Of a DNA stretch of 64,000 nt, positions 33,565 through 41,893 are shown in pieces. The position numbers were made by a program, and so were the translations under genes. The notes under the pieces are model-generated. The model did not search any database, had not been told where the DNA came from, and saw only the letters and a list, made by a program, of their open reading frames with translations. The stretch is from an uncultured Bacilli bacterium. GTDB taxonomy: Bacteria; Bacillota_I; Bacilli_A; RF39; UBA660. How positions within the stretch are numbered: position 1 is the stretch's first letter; every line of letters starts with the position of its first letter. The stretch covers positions 5,321-69,320 of the forward strand of contig CAKOPC010000003.1 in the NCBI GenBank assembly GCA_934098705.1. The letters run 5' to 3'.

Positions 33565-34095
33565 ATGAATATCAAAGATAATCGTCGTGTTTCAATGACT
33601 AAAAAAATTATTAAAGATACATTTATTGAAATGTTAGAAAAGAAAAATATTCAAAAGATTTATGTTAGAGAATTATGTGAATCTGCTGATATTAATAGAA
33701 GTACATTCTATAAATATTATGAATCACAATATGATTTATTAGCAGAAATGCAAAATGATTTGCTCATTCAAATAGAAGAAAAATGTAAAGATACTGATAA
33801 TATAAAAGGATTAAATAATATATTACATTATCTAAATAATAATAAAAAAATGTATAAGATTATTTTTAATGCAAATATTGATCCAATATTTCCAAAAAAA
33901 TTGTTAAATTTGCCTATTATTACTGAAATATTAAATAGCAAAATGTCTAGTAAAACTGAAACTAAATATAAGAAAACTTATATTCTTGAGGGTGGATACC
34001 ATGTTATATTAGAATGGTTAAATAATGATTGCAAAGAACCGGCAGAAAAGATAACTGAAGTCCTTATGAAATATATAAATCAAAATTTGAAATAG
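33565..34095 (+). CDS. TetR/AcrR-family transcriptional regulator
   Basis: N-terminal HTH KIYVRELCESADINRSTFYKYYESQYDL; 176 aa. Confidence 0.75.
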   Translation: MNIKDNRRVSMTKKIIKDTFIEMLEKKNIQKIYVRELCESADINRSTFYKYYESQYDLLAEMQNDLLIQIEEKCKDTDNIKGLNNILHYLNNNKKMYKIIFNANIDPIFPKKLLNLPIITEILNSKMSSKTETKYKKTYILEGGYHVILEWLNNDCKEPAEKITEVLMKYINQNLK

Positions 34096-34100
34096 AAAAA

Positions 34101-34145
34101 AAGTTTATAGAAAGTAAATATATCTATAAACTTTTTATTTATACT
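34101..34145. terminator. Bidirectional intrinsic terminator
   Basis: AGTTTATAG-aaagtaaatatat-CTATAAACT hairpin flanked by A/T runs, between convergent genes. Confidence 0.4.
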
Positions 34146-35559
34146 GATAAGGATTATTAACTGTCCCATCTCCTGTCATTTCAAAATTGCCGTTTATTGT
34201 TATGACTGGTCTTATATAATAACTATTCGTTAATAAATTTCTAGTCCAGTCAGTAGGAGATCCATTTTTATCTACAATAAAAACATTTCCATTTTTATAT
34301 GTTGGATCGTAATATGCTGGGGATAATGTCCAGTAGTAATCAGGAATGCTAGAATTATATAAGAAATATGAAGTGTTATTTTTTTTATAAGCTCCTCCTG
34401 CTAAAACAACTTCTTCTGCACTTATTAATCCAATATTTTCTTGAGTAATATATTTACTAGGACAAACTAGTATTGGAGAATAATTATTACTATCTTGACC
34501 TAAATTTTCATATGATTGAAAATAATTAACATTCGCATATGTACCTGATGATTTTCTTGTATAATAATCAAGATTTATACAAAAATTTGATTTTACGATT
34601 TTATCAGAATTAGATGCTAAATTATTTTGATACCAATTATCTAAAATTGGTTTAATATTACTATTACCATAAGCAAGCATTTCTTTTGCTAAATCTATTG
34701 TATCAGCAGAAGCACTATCTCTATATTTAGATGTTGTTCCACTTATTACACCATCTAATACAATTCTTAGATTACCATTTTCATCTATTTGTAGTATTCT
34801 CCATGTGAACCCTCCAAAAGAAACATAGTTATCATCATAATTACCTCTTAGTAAAATTACATTTTCATTATTTATACCTTTTATAGTATGTATTTCTTTT
34901 CCAGTAGCAATATTACTAAATTTTTGTTTTCTTTCTGTTTCTTCCATACTTTCAATATCTATATGTTCTATATCTTGGGCATTACCAGATGGTACATAAT
35001 TATTTACAAGAGTTGTTTCCATTTGAGTTTGATTTATTTTAAAGTTAAAACCTATATATGATACTAAAGTGTTAGAATCAGGAACAATATTATCTTTATA
35101 ACTAAAAGTAATACTAAATTCTTTAAATGTATGTGGCTCTATCTTAGTATCTTTATCTATACCAGTTAATGTAAATATTATATTTTGATTACTATAGAAT
35201 GCATTATCATAAATAGGATTATTAAATCTATATGTTTCGTTATTTTTATTATACACTTTAATTTTATATGTAATAGAGGAGTTTCCATTTGTGTTTGATA
35301 ATACAATTCTAGAATTTAAAGTGGTACTAGAAAATGTTATTATTTTTGACTCTTCTAAATTTGCATCGATATTTGAATCATAATTAACTTCAGTTATAAA
35401 TAAACCATCTTGTGAAACAAGACTAACATCTCCACTAATATCAAGAGTAATAGAGTTTACTATTGCATATCCAATAGACATAAATAAAGTTGTAAGCGTA
35501 ATCAAAAATAAATAAAGTGGCTTTTTATTAATATTTTTATTTTTTATTGATTTATCCAT
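34135..35559 (-). CDS. Large secreted protein with SipW-cognate (TasA/camelysin-type) N-terminal signal region
   Basis: N-terminal TM then SIGYAIVNSITLDISGDVSL, which parallels the GVGYALTTIDLKVNGDITV segment of the TasA-like protein in the same operon. Start probably MDKSIKN. Confidence 0.45.
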   Translation of the reverse strand: MDKSIKNKNINKKPLYLFLITLTTLFMSIGYAIVNSITLDISGDVSLVSQDGLFITEVNYDSNIDANLEESKIITFSSTTLNSRIVLSNTNGNSSITYKIKVYNKNNETYRFNNPIYDNAFYSNQNIIFTLTGIDKDTKIEPHTFKEFSITFSYKDNIVPDSNTLVSYIGFNFKINQTQMETTLVNNYVPSGNAQDIEHIDIESMEETERKQKFSNIATGKEIHTIKGINNENVILLRGNYDDNYVSFGGFTWRILQIDENGNLRIVLDGVISGTTSKYRDSASADTIDLAKEMLAYGNSNIKPILDNWYQNNLASNSDKIVKSNFCINLDYYTRKSSGTYANVNYFQSYENLGQDSNNYSPILVCPSKYITQENIGLISAEEVVLAGGAYKKNNTSYFLYNSSIPDYYWTLSPAYYDPTYKNGNVFIVDKNGSPTDWTRNLLTNSYYIRPVITINGNFEMTGDGTVNNPYQYK

Positions 35560-35604
35560 ATATATCACCATTTATTTAAAATAAAAGAATATGATAGAAA
35601 AGTA

Positions 35605-36738
35605 TCATAATTCAAAATCATTAATTATTCCTTTTTCTACTGCATTTTCTCTCATTTGCTTTTTTATTTTAGATACTTTCAAAGAATAAGTATAAAGAAT
35701 CTTTGTGTTACTAGGAATTATAAAATATACTCCAGTTTTTTCTTTGTTTTCAGTCATTAATATTGGTTGACCTAGTGTATCCCTTATTTCTAACATATCA
35801 GTAAATTCATCTACTTGAAGAACTTGATATCCACTTAAATCAAATGAATTATTTATTTTTTGAATATAACTTTTATAATTGTTAAGAATTTTTTGCAATT
35901 CTCTTTGATATATGCTTTCAGCTGTTCTTGTTTTAATTATATATTTTACTAAAATCACTAAAACTATAATTTCAATTAGAAACACTATAACTGCAACGAC
36001 TAGGAATAAAAAGTTAAATGGAGATTTTTCTATACAAGCCATAAAGTTTTCTTGCTTTGCATCTACTAGACTTTTTGAGATATCAATGGCAACTGTCTTG
36101 GTAGTTAGTGGAATACTTAAAGAAACAGTTGATGTCTTATCCGTATCTTTGATATCTTCACATTCTCCTAATACCTTAATATTCATAACTATATCAAGAG
36201 TTGCTATAGACTCATCTAAATTATATATACTAACAAATTTTTTAATTAAATCATTATATTTATTATAATCTATTGTTACATCTTCTTTTATTTGTACACT
36301 TGATTTACTATTTGAATGATTTATCTTATCACTAATAAGCGTATCAGTGTATTTATATATTGAGTTTTTAGTATTTTTATCTATTACATTTACATTTGCT
36401 TCAATAGAATACTGATATTTATAATCTATATTTTTTTCGCTAACATTTAAATTATAATCAAATGTGGCATTAATATAATCTATAAGATTAGCTATATATT
36501 GATTATTTGCATCTAGATACTCTTTATTAAAGAATTCATTATCTTTTAAATAAACTTTATAATCTATTTTACTTTCTTCATTATAAGGAACGTAATAAGT
36601 TTTATTCTTTGTTAAAAATAGACACACGAAAGACATAACTATGAATGTTAAGATAAATAACACACAAGCATAACTTATAATCGTTTTTCTACGTTTAGTT
36701 TGATCAACAAGTATTGCATTAACTTGATTCTTTTTCAT
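35605..36738 (-). CDS. Two-TM membrane protein of unknown function within the fibre operon
   Basis: 377 aa; TM near the N-terminus and at ~aa 235-265. Confidence 0.4.
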   Translation of the reverse strand: MKKNQVNAILVDQTKRRKTIISYACVLFILTFIVMSFVCLFLTKNKTYYVPYNEESKIDYKVYLKDNEFFNKEYLDANNQYIANLIDYINATFDYNLNVSEKNIDYKYQYSIEANVNVIDKNTKNSIYKYTDTLISDKINHSNSKSSVQIKEDVTIDYNKYNDLIKKFVSIYNLDESIATLDIVMNIKVLGECEDIKDTDKTSTVSLSIPLTTKTVAIDISKSLVDAKQENFMACIEKSPFNFLFLVVAVIVFLIEIIVLVILVKYIIKTRTAESIYQRELQKILNNYKSYIQKINNSFDLSGYQVLQVDEFTDMLEIRDTLGQPILMTENKEKTGVYFIIPSNTKILYTYSLKVSKIKKQMRENAVEKGIINDFEL

Positions 36739-36771
36739 AGTTAGACTCCTTTCTTTTTATTCTATATTTAT

Positions 36772-37890
36772 TTATGAAAACATTTCTTTTATCCAAATTG
36801 ATGGATAACCAATATATTTTATTCTTAATTTTGATATCCCAATGATATCACTATCCACTAAATAATAATCATCTGCACTCATATTGGCGTCCCCTTTAGT
36901 GTAATATCTAATACTACCATTTATATCTTTTTTATCAATAACTCTATGTATAATTTGCAATCCGTCTTTTTTAAATACGATAATATCTCCTGTTTTAATG
37001 TTTTGTTTATCATATTTAACAAATATTGTTGTATCTCCCATATTAAGAGCTCCTGTCATACTTTTAGATCCAATTACCAATATTCCATATTTAAACTGAC
37101 AAGATATTAACATTGTTATCGAAGATAAAACTATTATTAATATAGTAGTCCCCACAATCTCTCTTTTTTTATCCTTATAAGCAACTGCAAAATTTGTTTT
37201 TGAATAGGTATATTCTAGAAACAAATATATAAAGTATGGATAAACAATTTTTAAAAATGTTCTAAAGAAGATGTATATGTTTGGAGTATAAGGAATAATA
37301 AAAGAATATAAAATAGTTATTAGTCTATATACAACAACACTGTTTTTCCCATATCTTAGTGAAATATAATTATAAAGCAAATTACTTGAAATAGATGAGA
37401 ATACAATAAAACCGATTATAATTAATAAATCCTCTAGGTTCGAGTAACTATAAACTTCACCATAAATTATTAGATCAATAAGAACAAATGCAATAAAGGG
37501 GATTATCTTAGCAAATTTTCCTCGTTGTGCTAGAAATATTTCTCTAATTACTTCAGTTGAGTACACAATGATTGTTATTGGAATTATATAATATAATAAA
37601 GCAACTTTACCAAATTTAACCGAAGATTCATAAAAACCAAAGTGTATTCCCATTAGGTAAAAAACTATTAGATAAATAATTCCCATTGCACTCATTACTA
37701 TTGTTACTTCTTTTTTGTAGTGAGATATAATATTTCTTTTTTTAATTATTTTTTTTAGTATCAACATATAAATAAGAAGAAATATTGACAAATATATTGT
37801 TTTATATATTGTTGACACAAAGAGAATAAAGAAAAGAAATGTAACTAAAATAAATTCAAACACATAATTTTTTATCTTATCTATACCCAT
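36772..37890 (-). CDS. Fusion of a polytopic membrane domain (~250 aa, ~8 TM) with a C-terminal SipW/ER-type signal peptidase I (S26B) domain
   Basis: C-terminal GSKSMTGALNMGD (catalytic Ser box), DIIVF, IIHRV (His), YYTKGDAN: Ser/His-type S26B signature. Confidence 0.6.
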   Translation of the reverse strand: MGIDKIKNYVFEFILVTFLFFILFVSTIYKTIYLSIFLLIYMLILKKIIKKRNIISHYKKEVTIVMSAMGIIYLIVFYLMGIHFGFYESSVKFGKVALLYYIIPITIIVYSTEVIREIFLAQRGKFAKIIPFIAFVLIDLIIYGEVYSYSNLEDLLIIIGFIVFSSISSNLLYNYISLRYGKNSVVVYRLITILYSFIIPYTPNIYIFFRTFLKIVYPYFIYLFLEYTYSKTNFAVAYKDKKREIVGTTILIIVLSSITMLISCQFKYGILVIGSKSMTGALNMGDTTIFVKYDKQNIKTGDIIVFKKDGLQIIHRVIDKKDINGSIRYYTKGDANMSADDYYLVDSDIIGISKLRIKYIGYPSIWIKEMFS

Positions 37891-37927
37891 AAAATCCCTC
37901 TTCTTTATCTACTTTCTATCAACTATA

Positions 37928-38443
37928 TTACTTTGTTGCACTAGCATTAAATGTAACAGTAAAGTTTCCTGTAACTTCTTCTAAAGGTGCTTTTACTAAT
38001 TCAACTGTAACAGTTAGTTTCTTTGTTCCATTTGGAGCAATAGCAGCGTTATCTGCAAGTTCTGCTGTAACTGTATAATAATCTTTTGCAGTATCATCTG
38101 TTTGTGTTGCTGTTGGATTAGATAATGTTGCGTTAATACCAGCTTTACTGTTATTAGTTATTGTGTATTCTGCAACAACTTTTTCACCAACTGTTTTTAA
38201 TGTTTTTACAGATAGTGTTGCTATTTTTCCATTTCCTTTATCAGCTGTATCAGTTTTACCTGTTAAAGTTCCAGTTGTTGTTATGCTAGCATCAGTAAAA
38301 TTAACATCAAAGTTACTATCATCTGGACTAACTGTAATATCACCATTTACTTTTAAGTCAATAGTAGTAAGGGCATAACCAACACCTAAAACTAGTACTG
38401 CAACAACTAAAGCAAGAGCAACAAATGATTTTTTCTTTTTCAT
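37928..38443 (-). CDS. TasA/camelysin-like secreted fibre subunit candidate (SipW-cognate signal peptide)
   Basis: 171 aa. MKKKKSFVALALVVAVLVLGVGYALTTIDLKVNGDITV then Thr/Asn/Val-rich beta-type sequence. Immediately upstream of the SipW-like peptidase. Confidence 0.5.
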   Translation of the reverse strand: MKKKKSFVALALVVAVLVLGVGYALTTIDLKVNGDITVSPDDSNFDVNFTDASITTTGTLTGKTDTADKGNGKIATLSVKTLKTVGEKVVAEYTITNNSKAGINATLSNPTATQTDDTAKDYYTVTAELADNAAIAPNGTKKLTVTVELVKAPLEEVTGNFTVTFNASATK

Positions 38444-38605
38444 CTCTTTTCACCTCCTCGCACAATATTTTTATGGGAGTAATCTACATAATAGCTACTC
38501 CCAAATAACTATCATGCTTTTTAAGGTTAAGATATAAGAATATAAACTATTTAAAATTAGAGTCTGTCCTTCTACCTTAATCTTACAATTATAATTATAT
38601 CATAC

Positions 38606-38648
38606 TTTTCCGAAATCGGCAAAGAAAATTTTCGTTTTCGGAAAAAAT
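38606..38648 (-). promoter_or_regulatory. Two operator copies overlapping the promoter of the tasA-like/sipW operon
   Basis: Gene-strand reading CCGAAAACGAAAATTTTCTTTGCCGATTTCGGAAAAGTATGATATAAT. CCGATTTCGG is a perfect palindrome; it sits in -35 position, 17 bp from TATAAT. Confidence 0.5.
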
Positions 38649-38723
38649 AAATATAAAAAAGAGTTATATGTGTATTATTTATTCATTAGTTAACAAAAAA
38701 AGAAATCTAATTAAATAGATTCC

Positions 38724-39806
38724 TTATCTCATAGAAAAACTATTATTTATAGTTAATATACTATACATAAAAAGAACATCTTGATTATTAAATTTTATAT
38801 AATTATTCAAAATCCTTGAAGAAACATATCTAATATCAATAACAGTAATCTTCTTATAACCCTCTATTAACAAAGGAATTAAACTACTACCATAAGAATC
38901 ACGGAAAACAATTAATTCTTTATTACTATTTGAAGTAGGATTAACAATATCAATAATAGAAGATGCTCCTGATAAATATATATCATATTTATCTAATGAT
39001 TTTAGTTTGTCATAATCATATATTTGTGTATATTTTTTAGTTTCATAATTATACACACTGCTATTAAGAGTAGATGGATTAGATATAGTTTTTATAGTAT
39101 CAATATCTTTAGTTACTGATAATCTACCAGCATAACTACCTTTAAAAGTAGTAACAGTATTTATAACATTGTTATTAGTTATATCAAAGTTCATTTGATT
39201 AGCAATAGTATTTGCAACATTAAATAAATCTTCTTGTTTCCAATGAGTATCAGTCTTATAATAATTATTAAGTGTTAATTTATCAAATATATTTATATAA
39301 TTAAGACTTGTTAAATTACTTTTCATCATATCTTGTAATTTATTATAATCAAGTTTTAAATTACCTTTATTAACAAAATAATTTTTATCAGGAATAATAG
39401 TATAATATATATTACTATTATTATTCAAATATGTATTTTTTATATAATTAATCTTATTTGTTAAATTATTAATAGAATTAGTATTTAAAGGAAATATTTC
39501 TTCAACAATATAATCATCGTACATATATAAATTATTATATTCACCTTTAGTAGATAATTCTATATCTATTTTAATTTTTCTAAAAGTATCTCTTTTAATA
39601 AACTGATCCGTAACATAGGAATCAAATTTCTTAAAATATGTACCATCAAACAAGCTTTTAGTAGTTAGTTCTGGCATAGTAGCAAGTTTTCTTCTCTCTG
39701 CTATAGAAATATCAGTATCTTTTTTTATAACATTAATCAAAAATAATGAAATTATAGTAAAAAGAAATACTAAAGTTACAACTATATTTTTAATTTTATC
39801 GTTCAT
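38724..39806 (-). CDS. DHHW-family (AlgX/DltD-like SGNH-type) extracytoplasmic O-acyltransferase partner
   Basis: N-terminal TM anchor; KTDTHW (DHHW-like) motif. Located directly downstream of the MBOAT gene. Confidence 0.55.
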   Translation of the reverse strand: MNDKIKNIVVTLVFLFTIISLFLINVIKKDTDISIAERRKLATMPELTTKSLFDGTYFKKFDSYVTDQFIKRDTFRKIKIDIELSTKGEYNNLYMYDDYIVEEIFPLNTNSINNLTNKINYIKNTYLNNNSNIYYTIIPDKNYFVNKGNLKLDYNKLQDMMKSNLTSLNYINIFDKLTLNNYYKTDTHWKQEDLFNVANTIANQMNFDITNNNVINTVTTFKGSYAGRLSVTKDIDTIKTISNPSTLNSSVYNYETKKYTQIYDYDKLKSLDKYDIYLSGASSIIDIVNPTSNSNKELIVFRDSYGSSLIPLLIEGYKKITVIDIRYVSSRILNNYIKFNNQDVLFMYSILTINNSFSMR

Positions 39807-39817
39807 GTATAACCTCC

Positions 39818-41215
39818 TTAAAATCTAAAATATAGAAATGGATTATATGAATTGTCTATCAAATAAGAAGTAACAACAAATAATATGATTACTATTAAAA
39901 TTGGTTCTAAAATATTAATTATGTTATTTACATATTTATTTTTTCTTAACTTTTCTATTAATGTTTTAATAAAAGGAGTAGCCCCAAATAAAGCAATAAT
40001 TAGTAATGGTAGATAACTCTTTAAGTAATGGAGTGTATAATCATTAATAAAAACTTCTCCATTCATACCAAATAACCCTTTAATATTAGTCAAAGCCACT
40101 TGCATATTGTCAGAATTAAATATAATAAATAATATCATAACAATAAATAATACATATATTCTTCTTATAAAAGAAGGTAATTTTTCTATAAATTTATTAA
40201 GGAATAATTTTTCTATTATAAGAATAATTCCAAACAATAATCCCCATATTAAAAAAGTCCAATTAGCACCATGCCATATTCCAGTTAATAACCATACTAT
40301 TAAAATATTTCTTATTTGTTTATATTTACCATCTCTATTACCTCCAAGTGGAATATAAACATAATCTTTAAACCATGTACTAAGAGAAATGTGCCATCTT
40401 CTCCAAAACTCAGTTATACTTTTTGATATATATGGGTAATTAAAGTTTTCAGGGAAATTAAATCCAAATATTCTTCCAAGACCAATAGCCATATCACTAT
40501 AAGCAGAAAAATCAAAATACAACTGTAGCATATAACTTATACCAAATATCCAATAAAATATTACGGTTGTTTCATTTAGAGCGAAAGCTTTAGTACAAAG
40601 TTCTCCCAAAGCATTTGCTATTAATACTTTTTTAGCAAGTCCAATAGAAAATCTTCTAATACCATATGCAAAATTATTAAAACTATGTACTCTATCATCT
40701 AATTCTTTTTCTACTGTTTGATATCTAACAATAGGTCCTGCGACTAACTGTGGAAATAAAGATACATAAGTGGCTAAATTTATAATGTTTTTTTGAACTT
40801 TAACTTTTCCATTATATACATCAATAACATAACTTATAATTTGAAATGTATAAAATGATATTCCTATTGGTAATGCAATATTTAATAATTTAATATTAGC
40901 ATTAGATATATCATTAATTGTTTGTATAATAAAATCAGTATATTTAAATATTATTAATAAAAATACATGTATAAATAAAGTTGTTATTAATATATTTTTA
41001 CTTTGATTTTTATATTTATCAATTAAAATAGCTCCTATATAAGCAATAATAATTTCTGCAATCATTAAAAAAACATATTTAGGTTCTCCGTAAAAATAAA
41101 ATAATAAAGATGCAATTAATAAAATAATATTTTTATATTTTTTAGGTGTTATAAAATATATAATTATTAATGCTGGTAAAAAATAATATAAAAAACTAAT
41201 ACTAGTAAATAACAT
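39818..41215 (-). CDS. MBOAT-family membrane-bound O-acyltransferase (AlgI/DltB/PatA-like)
   Basis: 465 aa polytopic; conserved WRRWHISLSTWFKDYVYIPLGGNR block and catalytic His region. Confidence 0.75.
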   Translation of the reverse strand: MLFTSISFLYYFLPALIIIYFITPKKYKNIILLIASLLFYFYGEPKYVFLMIAEIIIAYIGAILIDKYKNQSKNILITTLFIHVFLLIIFKYTDFIIQTINDISNANIKLLNIALPIGISFYTFQIISYVIDVYNGKVKVQKNIINLATYVSLFPQLVAGPIVRYQTVEKELDDRVHSFNNFAYGIRRFSIGLAKKVLIANALGELCTKAFALNETTVIFYWIFGISYMLQLYFDFSAYSDMAIGLGRIFGFNFPENFNYPYISKSITEFWRRWHISLSTWFKDYVYIPLGGNRDGKYKQIRNILIVWLLTGIWHGANWTFLIWGLLFGIILIIEKLFLNKFIEKLPSFIRRIYVLFIVMILFIIFNSDNMQVALTNIKGLFGMNGEVFINDYTLHYLKSYLPLLIIALFGATPFIKTLIEKLRKNKYVNNIINILEPILIVIILFVVTSYLIDNSYNPFLYFRF

Positions 41216-41254
41216 TTTATCCTCCTTTAAAAAGGCACCTTAAAAGGTGCTTCA

Positions 41255-41833
41255 TTATTCTTCTGCTGGCATTTCTGGTGGAAGTTCTATATTTTCTTCG
41301 TTATTTGATTTTTCTAATTCTTTTCCAATATTATTATTTACATATTTCTTAAAATCATTATATACTGCTTTAGCAATATCTTTATCAGCCATTACAGAGA
41401 ATATTATATTACCACTATTAGTGATATATAATTGTTCTGCAGAAACACAAATCCATCGTCTCATATCAATATTATCTAGCATCTCTTGTTTAATTTTTTC
41501 TACATCAGCACTCTCTTTAACCTTAACAATAGCAACTGAATAAGCTTGTGCTGTTATCAATGGTACTGATACAACAATTGATTCGATACCATCATTTGTT
41601 TTTAAACCAGTATAACTATTAACTTCATCAATATTCTTTATATCTACTTTCATAGTTTCAAGTTCAGGTAAAATATCTTTGTTATTTTTATTTATAGTAT
41701 TAATAATGTTATTAATGTTTTTTGGTGTATTACCACCGCCTTTATTTCCGCCACTTGATACTAGTATGATTATTATAAATGATATAACTGCTAATAATAT
41801 CAAACCTATTATAAAAATATTTTGTTTTTTCAT
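41255..41833 (-). CDS. Membrane-anchored extracytoplasmic protein of unknown function (DUF4358-like)
   Basis: Signal anchor, Gly/Asn-rich linker, ~130-aa globular domain. Confidence 0.35.
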   Translation of the reverse strand: MKKQNIFIIGLILLAVISFIIIILVSSGGNKGGGNTPKNINNIINTINKNNKDILPELETMKVDIKNIDEVNSYTGLKTNDGIESIVVSVPLITAQAYSVAIVKVKESADVEKIKQEMLDNIDMRRWICVSAEQLYITNSGNIIFSVMADKDIAKAVYNDFKKYVNNNIGKELEKSNNEENIELPPEMPAEE

Positions 41834-41867: not shown

Positions 41868-41893
41868 CTTTTACCGAAATCAGTAAAAAAATT
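41868..41893 (-). promoter_or_regulatory. Operator copy plus extended -10 promoter upstream of the DUF4358-like gene
   Basis: Gene-strand reading TTACTGATTTCGGTAAAAGTATGATATAAT. Nearly identical to the tasA-like promoter, including the AAAAGTATGATATAAT tail. Confidence 0.5.

Follow-up and report, generated by a model that had tools for sequence, protein, structure and literature searches.

Why would a signal peptidase be carried at the end of a large polytopic membrane domain, and which secreted proteins would such an enzyme serve? The question is raised by a four-gene operon in a stretch of 64,000 nt from contig CAKOPC010000003.1 (GCA_934098705.1) of an uncultured Bacilli bacterium; this stretch is hereafter called the window, and all coordinates refer to it. 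On the minus strand, four co-oriented open reading frames (ORFs) follow one another with gaps of 37, 33 and 33 nt, in a window that is very AT-rich (G+C ~24% around the locus). ORF calling on the window confirmed the order, lengths and coordinates given in an initial annotation made from the letters of the DNA, which had described a TasA/camelysin-like fibre operon. Our preferred reading, held with moderate confidence, is that the operon encodes a sortase-independent surface fibre system of the TasA-superfamily or AbpX-type class, whose subunits would probably be joined by donor-strand complementation. The peptidase of this system is fused to a membrane domain that in its predicted structure resembles the CPBP (CAAX-protease and bacteriocin-processing) fold. 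The operon comprises the following features.

38594..38649, minus strand: promoter and operator, with -35, extended -10, palindrome and inverted half-site
37928..38443, minus strand: 171-aa putative major fibre subunit, with signal end, donor-strand-like segment and acidic beta-sandwich
36772..37890, minus strand: 372-aa protein, whole ORF, consisting of a polytopic domain and an S26B peptidase
37156..37890, minus strand: N-terminal domain of the 372-aa protein (residues 1-245), with eight predicted transmembrane (TM) helices and a predicted fold resembling CPBP / type II CAAX proteases
36772..37155, minus strand: C-terminal part of the 372-aa protein (residues 246-372), with anchor helix (238-263) and S26B domain
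35605..36738, minus strand: 377-aa DUF5305 protein with two TM segments, a putative signal-peptidase accessory subunit
34135..35571, minus strand: 478-aa large subunit-like protein, a putative tip, cap or nucleator
34094..34134, minus strand: AT-rich hairpin and T-run, the likely operon terminator

The C-terminal part of the 372-aa protein had been assigned to the S26B/SipW-type peptidases, and the first half of that assignment is borne out. Residues 248-365 match TIGR02228, the model for archaeal-type signal peptidase I, with 79.7 bits (cut-off 51.85), and a match to Peptidase_S26 scores 29.8 bits (cut-off 22.9). The score against NF046067, the equivalog model of Bacillus SipW, lies far under its cut-off (41.3 versus 190 bits), so the peptidase is not SipW itself. 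Loss of the catalytic Ser or His had been named as the observation that would speak against a peptidase, and it is not seen: in a set of 86 diverse homologues, made up of the window protein and 85 representatives that are 28-47% identical to it, S277 (GSxSM), H315 (HRV), D334 and D340 (TKGDAN...D) are each either invariant or conserved to at least 99%. The same four residues are also kept in 21 close homologues. Judged by these residues, the C-terminal domain is an S26B (SipW/archaeal/Sec11-type) Ser/His signal peptidase with an intact catalytic pair.

The large N-terminal extension was modelled together with the peptidase using AlphaFold2 (mean predicted local distance difference test score, pLDDT, 74.6). 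The model shows eight helices between residues 3 and 229 (3-23, 30-48, 59-84, 95-120, 126-143, 152-180, 183-198 and 207-229), in agreement with the roughly eight TM helices proposed initially, followed by the anchor helix (238-263) and the beta-rich peptidase domain, and a C-terminal TM helix is absent. Seven Lys and Arg residues fall in predicted cytoplasmic loops and one in outer loops, which supports an N-in, peptidase-out topology.

In the predicted structure, the N-terminal domain has the eight-TM fold of Rce1 and SpdC, and three conserved motifs follow the CPBP order along successive helices. Motif 1, (S/T)-E113-x-x-R116, holds its Glu in 86 of 86 sequences and its Arg in 84 (98%); position 139 of motif 2, F135-x-x-x-D139, is Asp or Glu in 82 of 86 (95%); and in motif 3, N170-x-x-x-N174, N170 is found in 72 of 86 (84%), while position 174 is Asn in 37 sequences, His in 24 and Gln in 7. 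The canonical CPBP motifs are EExxxR, FxxxH and HxxxD/N (PMC12260438), and both of their histidines are absent from this domain family. The initial annotation had recognised neither this fold nor the DUF5305 identity of the 377-aa protein, whose two TM segments it described correctly. The preprint on Pyrodictium abyssi AbpX (10.64898/2026.01.04.697558), which is considered below, mentions neither CPBP nor CAAX nor Rce1, and a literature search for CPBP combined with signal peptidase or TasA returned nothing relevant. The predicted CPBP-like fold of the fused membrane domain therefore appears to be a previously unreported element. An exosortase/archaeosortase-like identity of the domain was also considered and rejected: 60 of the 86 sequences have C264, yet no His is conserved and no fold match supports it.

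A degenerate polytopic CAAX-protease fold that accompanies a single-pass extracytoplasmic hydrolase has precedents in Staphylococcus aureus. SpbR, a CAAX-protease-like protein with degenerate motifs (HELYMR, FIYLD, QIVAI), is non-catalytic and binds and inhibits the signal peptidase SpsB through the TM helix and the extracellular domain of SpsB, and SpdC partners the single-pass hydrolase SagB (PMC12260438; PDB 6U0O). The 372-aa protein looks like a covalent counterpart of these two pairs, built on an S26B enzyme. It shares with SpbR the replacement of the motif 2 His by Asp (FIYLD in SpbR, FVLID here), and the precedent favours a model in which the domain would act as a membrane platform. Unlike SpbR-SpsB, the two parts form one chain here instead of separate polypeptides, and the peptidase is of the S26B (Ser/His) instead of the S26A (Ser/Lys) type; moreover, the domain has no detectable sequence similarity to SpbR, and its motif residues are much more conserved. 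Because SpbR inhibits a housekeeping peptidase whereas the partner here is operon-specific, the effect of the domain (activation, targeting or gating) may differ. The related systems also include the eukaryotic signal peptidase complex (SEC11, SPC12, SPC25, SPC22/23; PDB 7P2Q), whose accessory subunits are non-homologous and none of which has a CPBP fold.

The strength of the motif conservation also bears on a different explanation, namely that the domain is a second, active intramembrane Glu-site protease in which Asp/Glu and Asn replace the histidines. Such an enzyme would cut the same precursor, or the released signal peptide, at the cytoplasmic-leaflet side, serving as an integral signal-peptide peptidase or a step of leader trimming, and the 372-aa protein would process its substrates at two sites. 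By predicted helix position, E113, R116, N170 and N174 lie toward the cytoplasmic leaflet, as does the active site of Rce1. The invariance of E113, the 98% conservation of R116, the acidic residue at 139 in 95%, N170 in 84% and the predominance of Asn, His or Gln at 174 hold across a divergent set; non-catalytic CPBP homologues have degenerate motifs and mutations in the SpbR motifs were without effect (PMC12260438), so the stronger conservation seen in this family is a hint of a functional site. Among bacterial CPBP members, some, for example MroQ, are active leader proteases (PMC12260438). Against this, both canonical His positions (FxxxH and HxxxN/D) have lost their residue, position 174 being the only His-rich one (24/86), the Glu-Arg spacing differs from EExxxR, Pfam family PF02517 is not matched, and SpbR, which is non-catalytic, carries the same His-to-Asp change in motif 2. 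We consider an active protease unlikely; the near-absolute conservation of E113 and R116, which a passive scaffold leaves unexplained, keeps it alive as an alternative. In that improbable case, the fused domain would be a living His-less Rce1-type glutamate protease with a site formed by E113, R116, D/E139, N170 and N/H174, and the 372-aa protein an enzyme with two active sites, the S26B domain cutting at the outer face and the CPBP-like domain cutting or clearing the signal peptide in the inner leaflet. CPBP-like proteins and type I signal peptidases would then be ancient obligate partners in bacteria and archaea, and SpbR-SpsB a split descendant.

One might also suspect that the fusion is an artefact of annotation or assembly, or a decaying gene, in which two genes are read as one. 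The ORF, however, runs uninterrupted for 372 codons, its catalytic and motif residues are conserved, and the same architecture is widespread. A word-indexed search returned 1772 homologues of the 372-aa protein, and the 120 listed are 371-390 aa long, with 91-100% of the query covered. When the N-terminal 245 residues were searched as a profile against 1.84 billion cluster representatives, they matched 897 proteins (50% clustering), and among the matches listed almost all full-length proteins with the domain measure 368-384 aa, a length which implies that the domain is fused to the peptidase. Pattern matching in genomes taken one per species gave 484 matches, of which 456 encode a relative. 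Since over 1700 protein clusters have the full-length form, we assign next to no probability to an artefact, and the N-terminal domain is essentially always fused to the peptidase. The fusion had been called atypical, which is correct relative to Bacillus subtilis SipW; it is neither rare nor unnoticed, given the size of the family and the description of polytopic type I signal peptidases (SPase I) next to DUF5305 in the AbpX preprint (10.64898/2026.01.04.697558).

Two shorter matches to the N-terminal domain were inspected, and both might be cited in favour of an artefact. One homologue, P0199, is split by a frameshift. The other lies on a 2.2-kb metagenome contig (L083:267-1668), where a gene encodes a 251-aa CPBP-like domain and no peptidase domain follows downstream; this gene is preceded by that of a small subunit whose mature N-terminus, A-F-T-A-L-T-L-Q, is aromatic at position 2, like those of AbpX and TasA. 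The stand-alone copy on L083 is possibly genuine, and if so the platform domain can be a separate polypeptide; it is too little to build on.

For an analysis of the gene order, ORFs were called in the best 80 loci and searched with the four window proteins. The assemblies that contain them are from gut and rumen, and almost all bear the label metagenome-assembled genome (MAG) or uncultured; the labels include Bacilli (Candidatus Coprovivens, Scybalousia), 'Tenericutes', Erysipelotrichaceae, Clostridia, Oscillospiraceae and Christensenellaceae. The same operon, 97-98% identical, is found in four MAGs from the human gut (L001-L004), which bear the label 'uncultured Bacilli bacterium' or 'Bacilli bacterium'. 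The conserved order is small subunit, fusion peptidase and DUF5305 protein, in some loci followed by a large variable protein. DUF5305 lies directly downstream of the peptidase in all 80 loci, a small protein of ~165-200 aa precedes the peptidase as the promoter-proximal first gene in 73, and a large protein with an N-terminus of the 478-aa type occurs in ~46, usually as the last gene. Three MAGs with the operon (L010, L027, L035) are labelled Muribaculaceae or Paludibacteraceae (Bacteroidota), which probably reflects binning contamination and not horizontal transfer.

The constant companion of the peptidase, the 377-aa protein, matches DUF5305 (PF17231) with 43.6 bits (gathering threshold 29) over residues 129-351, covering positions 2-217 of the 217-position profile, and has hydrophobic segments at 18-45 and 234-271, that is, two TM segments. 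In the literature searched, mentions of DUF5305 all concern archaeal donor-strand fibres. According to the preprint on P. abyssi AbpX from January 2026, AbpX-linked SPase I with ten TM helices is found in bacteria and archaea, and most AbpX loci encode DUF5305, termed SPase I accessory protein, together with AbpX-like minor subunits and tip proteins (10.64898/2026.01.04.697558). In line with this, we regard the 377-aa protein as a putative signal-peptidase accessory subunit.

The operon resembles AbpX loci in its small acidic secreted subunit, its polytopic S26B SPase I of ~370-380 aa (TIGR02228), its DUF5305 protein and its larger tip-like protein. A search with AbpX returned Pyrodictium relatives only, and the P. 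abyssi locus was used for comparison. Its AbpX-linked peptidase is 380 aa long and has a C-terminal S26B domain (hhalign probability 98%) behind a polytopic N-terminal region of ~260 aa, and its GSGSM, HRV and TKGDAN align with the regions of S277, H315, D334 and D340. As the P. abyssi enzyme has the same architecture, the fusion in the window belongs to the class noted in the preprint. The hidden Markov model of the N-terminal domain, built from the 86 sequences, scored 12.2 bits against the P. abyssi region (p ~5e-6 for this single planned comparison), which is supportive only; this hmmsearch alignment places GxxFGF and ExxR in register, and the hhalign probability is just 5%. At the system level, with a polytopic SPase I, a DUF5305 protein, a small subunit and a tip-like protein, the locus is of the AbpX type. 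It differs from AbpX loci in that no cysteines are present, the predicted helices number nine instead of ten, its hosts belong to the uncultured Bacilli and Clostridia of gut and rumen, and the operon lacks an SLH or LPXTG anchor and cyclic-di-GMP genes.

The pairing of a dedicated peptidase with DUF5305 beside donor-strand fibre subunits is also known from the haloarchaeal tat-fimbriae (TafA/C/E, TafD, TafG), where the peptidase TafD is genetically needed for TafA processing and fibre formation and TafG is the DUF5305 protein (PMC11821415). Unlike the enzyme described here, in which the peptidase domain is C-terminal to an eight-TM domain, TafD has four TM helices, an N-terminal peptidase domain and a second extracellular domain; in addition, TafD substrates use the Tat pathway, whereas no twin-arginine motif is present here. 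A dedicated S26B peptidase gene next to a substrate gene is likewise the arrangement of tapA-sipW-tasA and of sipW-bsaA in Clostridium perfringens. Unlike the 372-aa protein, SipW has ~190 aa, no CPBP-like domain and no DUF5305 partner, and TasA is ~100 residues longer than the small subunit of the operon.

What, then, would the peptidase cut? The signal peptide of the 171-aa protein ends in LGVGYA, with cleavage predicted after A24, and is followed by the amphipathic donor-strand-like segment LTTIDLKVNGDITV; the 478-aa protein has the signal end SIGYA and the donor-strand-like segment IVNSITLDISGDVSL. The N-termini of the two proteins are related (BLASTP E 5e-5, residues 4-61 versus 16-84). 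Both classes share a signal consisting of a basic n-region, a hydrophobic core and L/A-G-(I/V)-G-(Y/F)-A, and the segment behind it alternates, as in A-I-S-x-I-x-L-x-I-x-G-T-A, around the core x-L-x-I-x-G-x-A. This combination of signal and strand recurs in ~73 small subunits and ~40 large proteins of other genomes; G-(Y/F)-A is nearly invariant across loci, and Y23 and A24 are invariant in alignment A3. With Gly at -3 and Ala at -1, the motif is a legitimate candidate for type I cleavage. It mirrors the TasA context, in which a small residue at -3 and an aromatic one at -2 precede Ala at -1 (G, Y/F and A here), and the AbpX signal, which likewise ends in aromatic-Ala before an amphipathic strand (G-L-T-Y-A there, G-V-G-Y-A here). 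TasA itself ends its signal with G-G-T-W-A, followed by A-F; its new N-terminus is the donor strand, and TapA, which has the same type of signal, nucleates or anchors the fibre. The suggestion that the secreted proteins have SipW-cognate N-termini is thus upheld as far as the common region and its TasA- and AbpX-like residues are concerned, while a match to the TIGR04088 profile was not obtained up to E=10.

The 171-aa protein was predicted with a pLDDT of 88.5 as a beta-sandwich from residue 47 on, with residues 22-45 unstructured in the monomer. The model has weak Foldseek matches to FimG, CfaB and the fibre of TasA (E 6e-3, probability 0.97), none of which exceeds a TM-score of 0.42, and generic PapD-like and Ig-like domains score as well as these matches. 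The mature subunit has an isoelectric point (pI) of 4.6, and the family median is 4.3. Homologues recovered under a name are annotated as 'hypothetical protein'. In the 478-aa protein, the C-terminal ~300 aa are without a family match. Large proteins of related loci carry BspA-type leucine-rich repeats (LRR, DUF285), ricin-type lectin, GH3 or FGE-sulfatase-like domains behind the N-terminal module; at L031:8290-10992 and L006:6343-8340, for instance, the module is fused to GH3 (E 1e-81) or to a ricin-type lectin. Such variety is expected for a variable tip or cargo subunit and suggests that some fibres of related loci display enzymes or carbohydrate-binding modules.

The same diversity, GH3 enzyme and FGE-sulfatase-like domains included, could also be read as the mark of a dedicated processing and sorting system for surface or secreted cargo such as adhesins, lectins and glycosidases, in which the strand would be a recognition or retention tag and not a donor strand. 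That the small protein lacks sequence homology to proven fibre subunits, and that its fold matches are generic, would fit this explanation too. However, the gene for a small acidic beta-sandwich protein comes first in 73 of 80 loci, as would befit a structural subunit made in abundance; the x-L-x-I-x-G-x-A alternation that directly follows the predicted cleavage site is a typical donor-strand pattern and common to both protein classes; and the pairing of the peptidase with DUF5305 is documented beside proven donor-strand fibres in both the tafi and the AbpX systems. We therefore regard pure cargo sorting as distinctly improbable and retain the fibre system as the preferred reading.

For this fibre system we propose the following working model, in which we infer the cleavage site, the formation of fibres and the part played by the CPBP-like domain as scaffold or gate. 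Both the 171-aa subunit and the 478-aa protein would be exported by the Sec pathway through a family-specific signal ending in G-x-G-Y/F-A, and the dedicated S26B peptidase would cut after the Ala of this motif. Cleavage would free the amphipathic N-terminal beta-strand, which could insert into the beta-sandwich of a neighbouring subunit and thereby drive polymerisation. The 478-aa protein would join the fibre by the same strand as tip, cap or nucleator and bear a variable functional domain. The His-less CPBP-fold domain may serve as a non-catalytic membrane platform that holds the anchor helix of the peptidase, and CPBP-like domain, two-TM DUF5305 protein and peptidase may together form a dedicated holoenzyme that recognises or gates these signal peptides. 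Processing may plausibly be coupled to polymerisation.

Several observations weigh against this reading and temper our confidence in it. On the side of the secreted proteins, Pfam and NCBIfam searches up to E=10 gave no match for either the 171-aa or the 478-aa protein, Peptidase_M73 (PF12389) and TIGR04088 included, and PDB sequences gave none for either protein. The label 'TasA/camelysin-like' given in the initial annotation therefore rests on weak fold resemblance and is at most weakly supported for the subunit. Compared with AbpX, the subunit family reached hhalign probabilities of 2.4-4.7%, which is not significant, and only the signal and strand region was aligned. The signal and strand of AbpX read G-L-T-Y-A and then Q-W-S-E-T-L-S-L, and its hallmarks, an aromatic residue at mature position 2 and an acidic one at position 4, are tied to Ca2+-mediated strand complementation (10.64898/2026.01.04.697558, with supplement). 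The mature subunit here begins with L-T-T-I-D, and the family pattern is A-(I/V)-(S/T)-x, without an aromatic residue at position 2 or an acidic one at position 4, and only the low pI agrees with the features of the AbpX subfamily. In addition, the operon has no visible anchor in the form of a sortase, LPXTG or SLH domain. On the side of the membrane domain, the Glu-Arg spacing in ExxR is one residue shorter than in EExxxR, Pfam and NCBIfam yielded nothing useful for the isolated domain at E=10, PF02517 was matched neither by the window domain at E=10 nor by any of the 86 family members at E=1, and a PDB search with the N-terminal domain profile was empty, so the CPBP assignment rests on the predicted structure and on motif analogy. 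Finally, the strict conservation of E113 and R116 is more than a purely passive scaffold accounts for.

The system is common in uncultured gut and rumen Bacillota, as indicated by the 456 one-per-species matches, and a fibre that displays lectin, LRR or glycosidase domains could plausibly be an organelle of colonisation or adhesion. Loci with a polytopic SPase I and DUF5305 were known before; new here are the CPBP-fold identity, the link to SpbR-SpsB and a large uncharacterised subunit family of gut Bacillota. The fold assignment would give the 'ten-TM' signal peptidases of TasA-superfamily loci a structural identity, and the natural gene fusion supports the recent discovery of CAAX-protease-like proteins as binding partners and regulators of type I signal peptidases. 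No characterised fibre shows detectable sequence similarity to the subunit family, which would thus widen the range of donor-strand biomatrix proteins.

How the operon is controlled can be read in part from the DNA in front of it. A sigma-70-type promoter (TTGCCG, 17-nt spacer, TG-n-TATAAT; 38622-38594, minus strand) lies 150 nt 5' of the 171-aa gene. The palindrome TTTACYGAWWTCRGTAAA occurs in the window at 9 sites with at most three mismatches, compared with 1.5 expected, and its usual place, at several promoters, is the -35 position, ~5 nt 5' of an extended -10 (TGnTATAAT). Positions of the palindrome are given in the following line.

27633, 29133, 29154, 29591, 30176, 30218, 38606 and 41870 of the window: palindrome sites, 18 nt each

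The copy at the operon, TTTGCCGATTTCGGAAAA (38606-38623), has two mismatches and overlaps the -35. Two operator copies had been proposed here; the one at the -35 is real, and the second operator-like site (38636-38645) is reduced to an inverted half-site, TTTTCCGAAA. A perfect copy (41870-41887) takes the equivalent promoter position in front of the upstream unit, which consists of a 192-aa gene, an MBOAT gene and a DHHW gene. The palindrome is probably a binding site for an activator or repressor that would define a small regulon, of which the fibre operon seems to be a member. Among the genomes compared, the inverted repeat of the operator is present only in the near-identical L001, L003 and L004, and its conservation is therefore uninformative about the operator. 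Some palindrome sites lie near a pair of genes for a Fur/PerR-like protein and rubrerythrin.

Rfam returned no match over the whole window, and the ~150-nt leader thus contains no known riboswitch. Just 5' of the ribosome-binding site, the leader can form an imperfect hairpin (38460-38517, minus strand; GGGAGTA ... TACTCCC) with 22-nt arms that are 77% complementary. It also contains a second extended -10-like sequence, AAAAGCATGATAGTTAT, which repeats the AAAAGTATGATATAAT of the promoter.

At the other end of the operon, directly 3' of the 478-aa gene, the terminator candidate is formed by the hairpin AAAGTTTATAGA ... TCTATAAACTTT and a subsequent T-run; it overlaps the 3' end of a convergent TetR-family gene downstream of the operon. 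A GC-based terminator scan did not pick up this AT-rich hairpin at 34094-34134. The annotated ATG of the 478-aa gene is without a recognisable Shine-Dalgarno sequence (35572-35604); GGAGG- or AGGAG-like sites precede each of the other three genes. For the 478-aa gene, the second Met (residue 5) may be the true start, or its translation may be weak or coupled, which would fit a tip protein of low abundance.

The upstream unit (38724-41833, minus strand) comprises genes for a 192-aa membrane-anchored protein, a 465-aa MBOAT/DltB-like O-acyltransferase and a 360-aa DHHW-family protein. The 465-aa protein matches MBOAT with 127 bits and scores 170 bits against the DltB model, under its cut-off of 375. 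The unit looks like a module for the acylation of a cell-surface polymer and may be co-regulated with the fibre.

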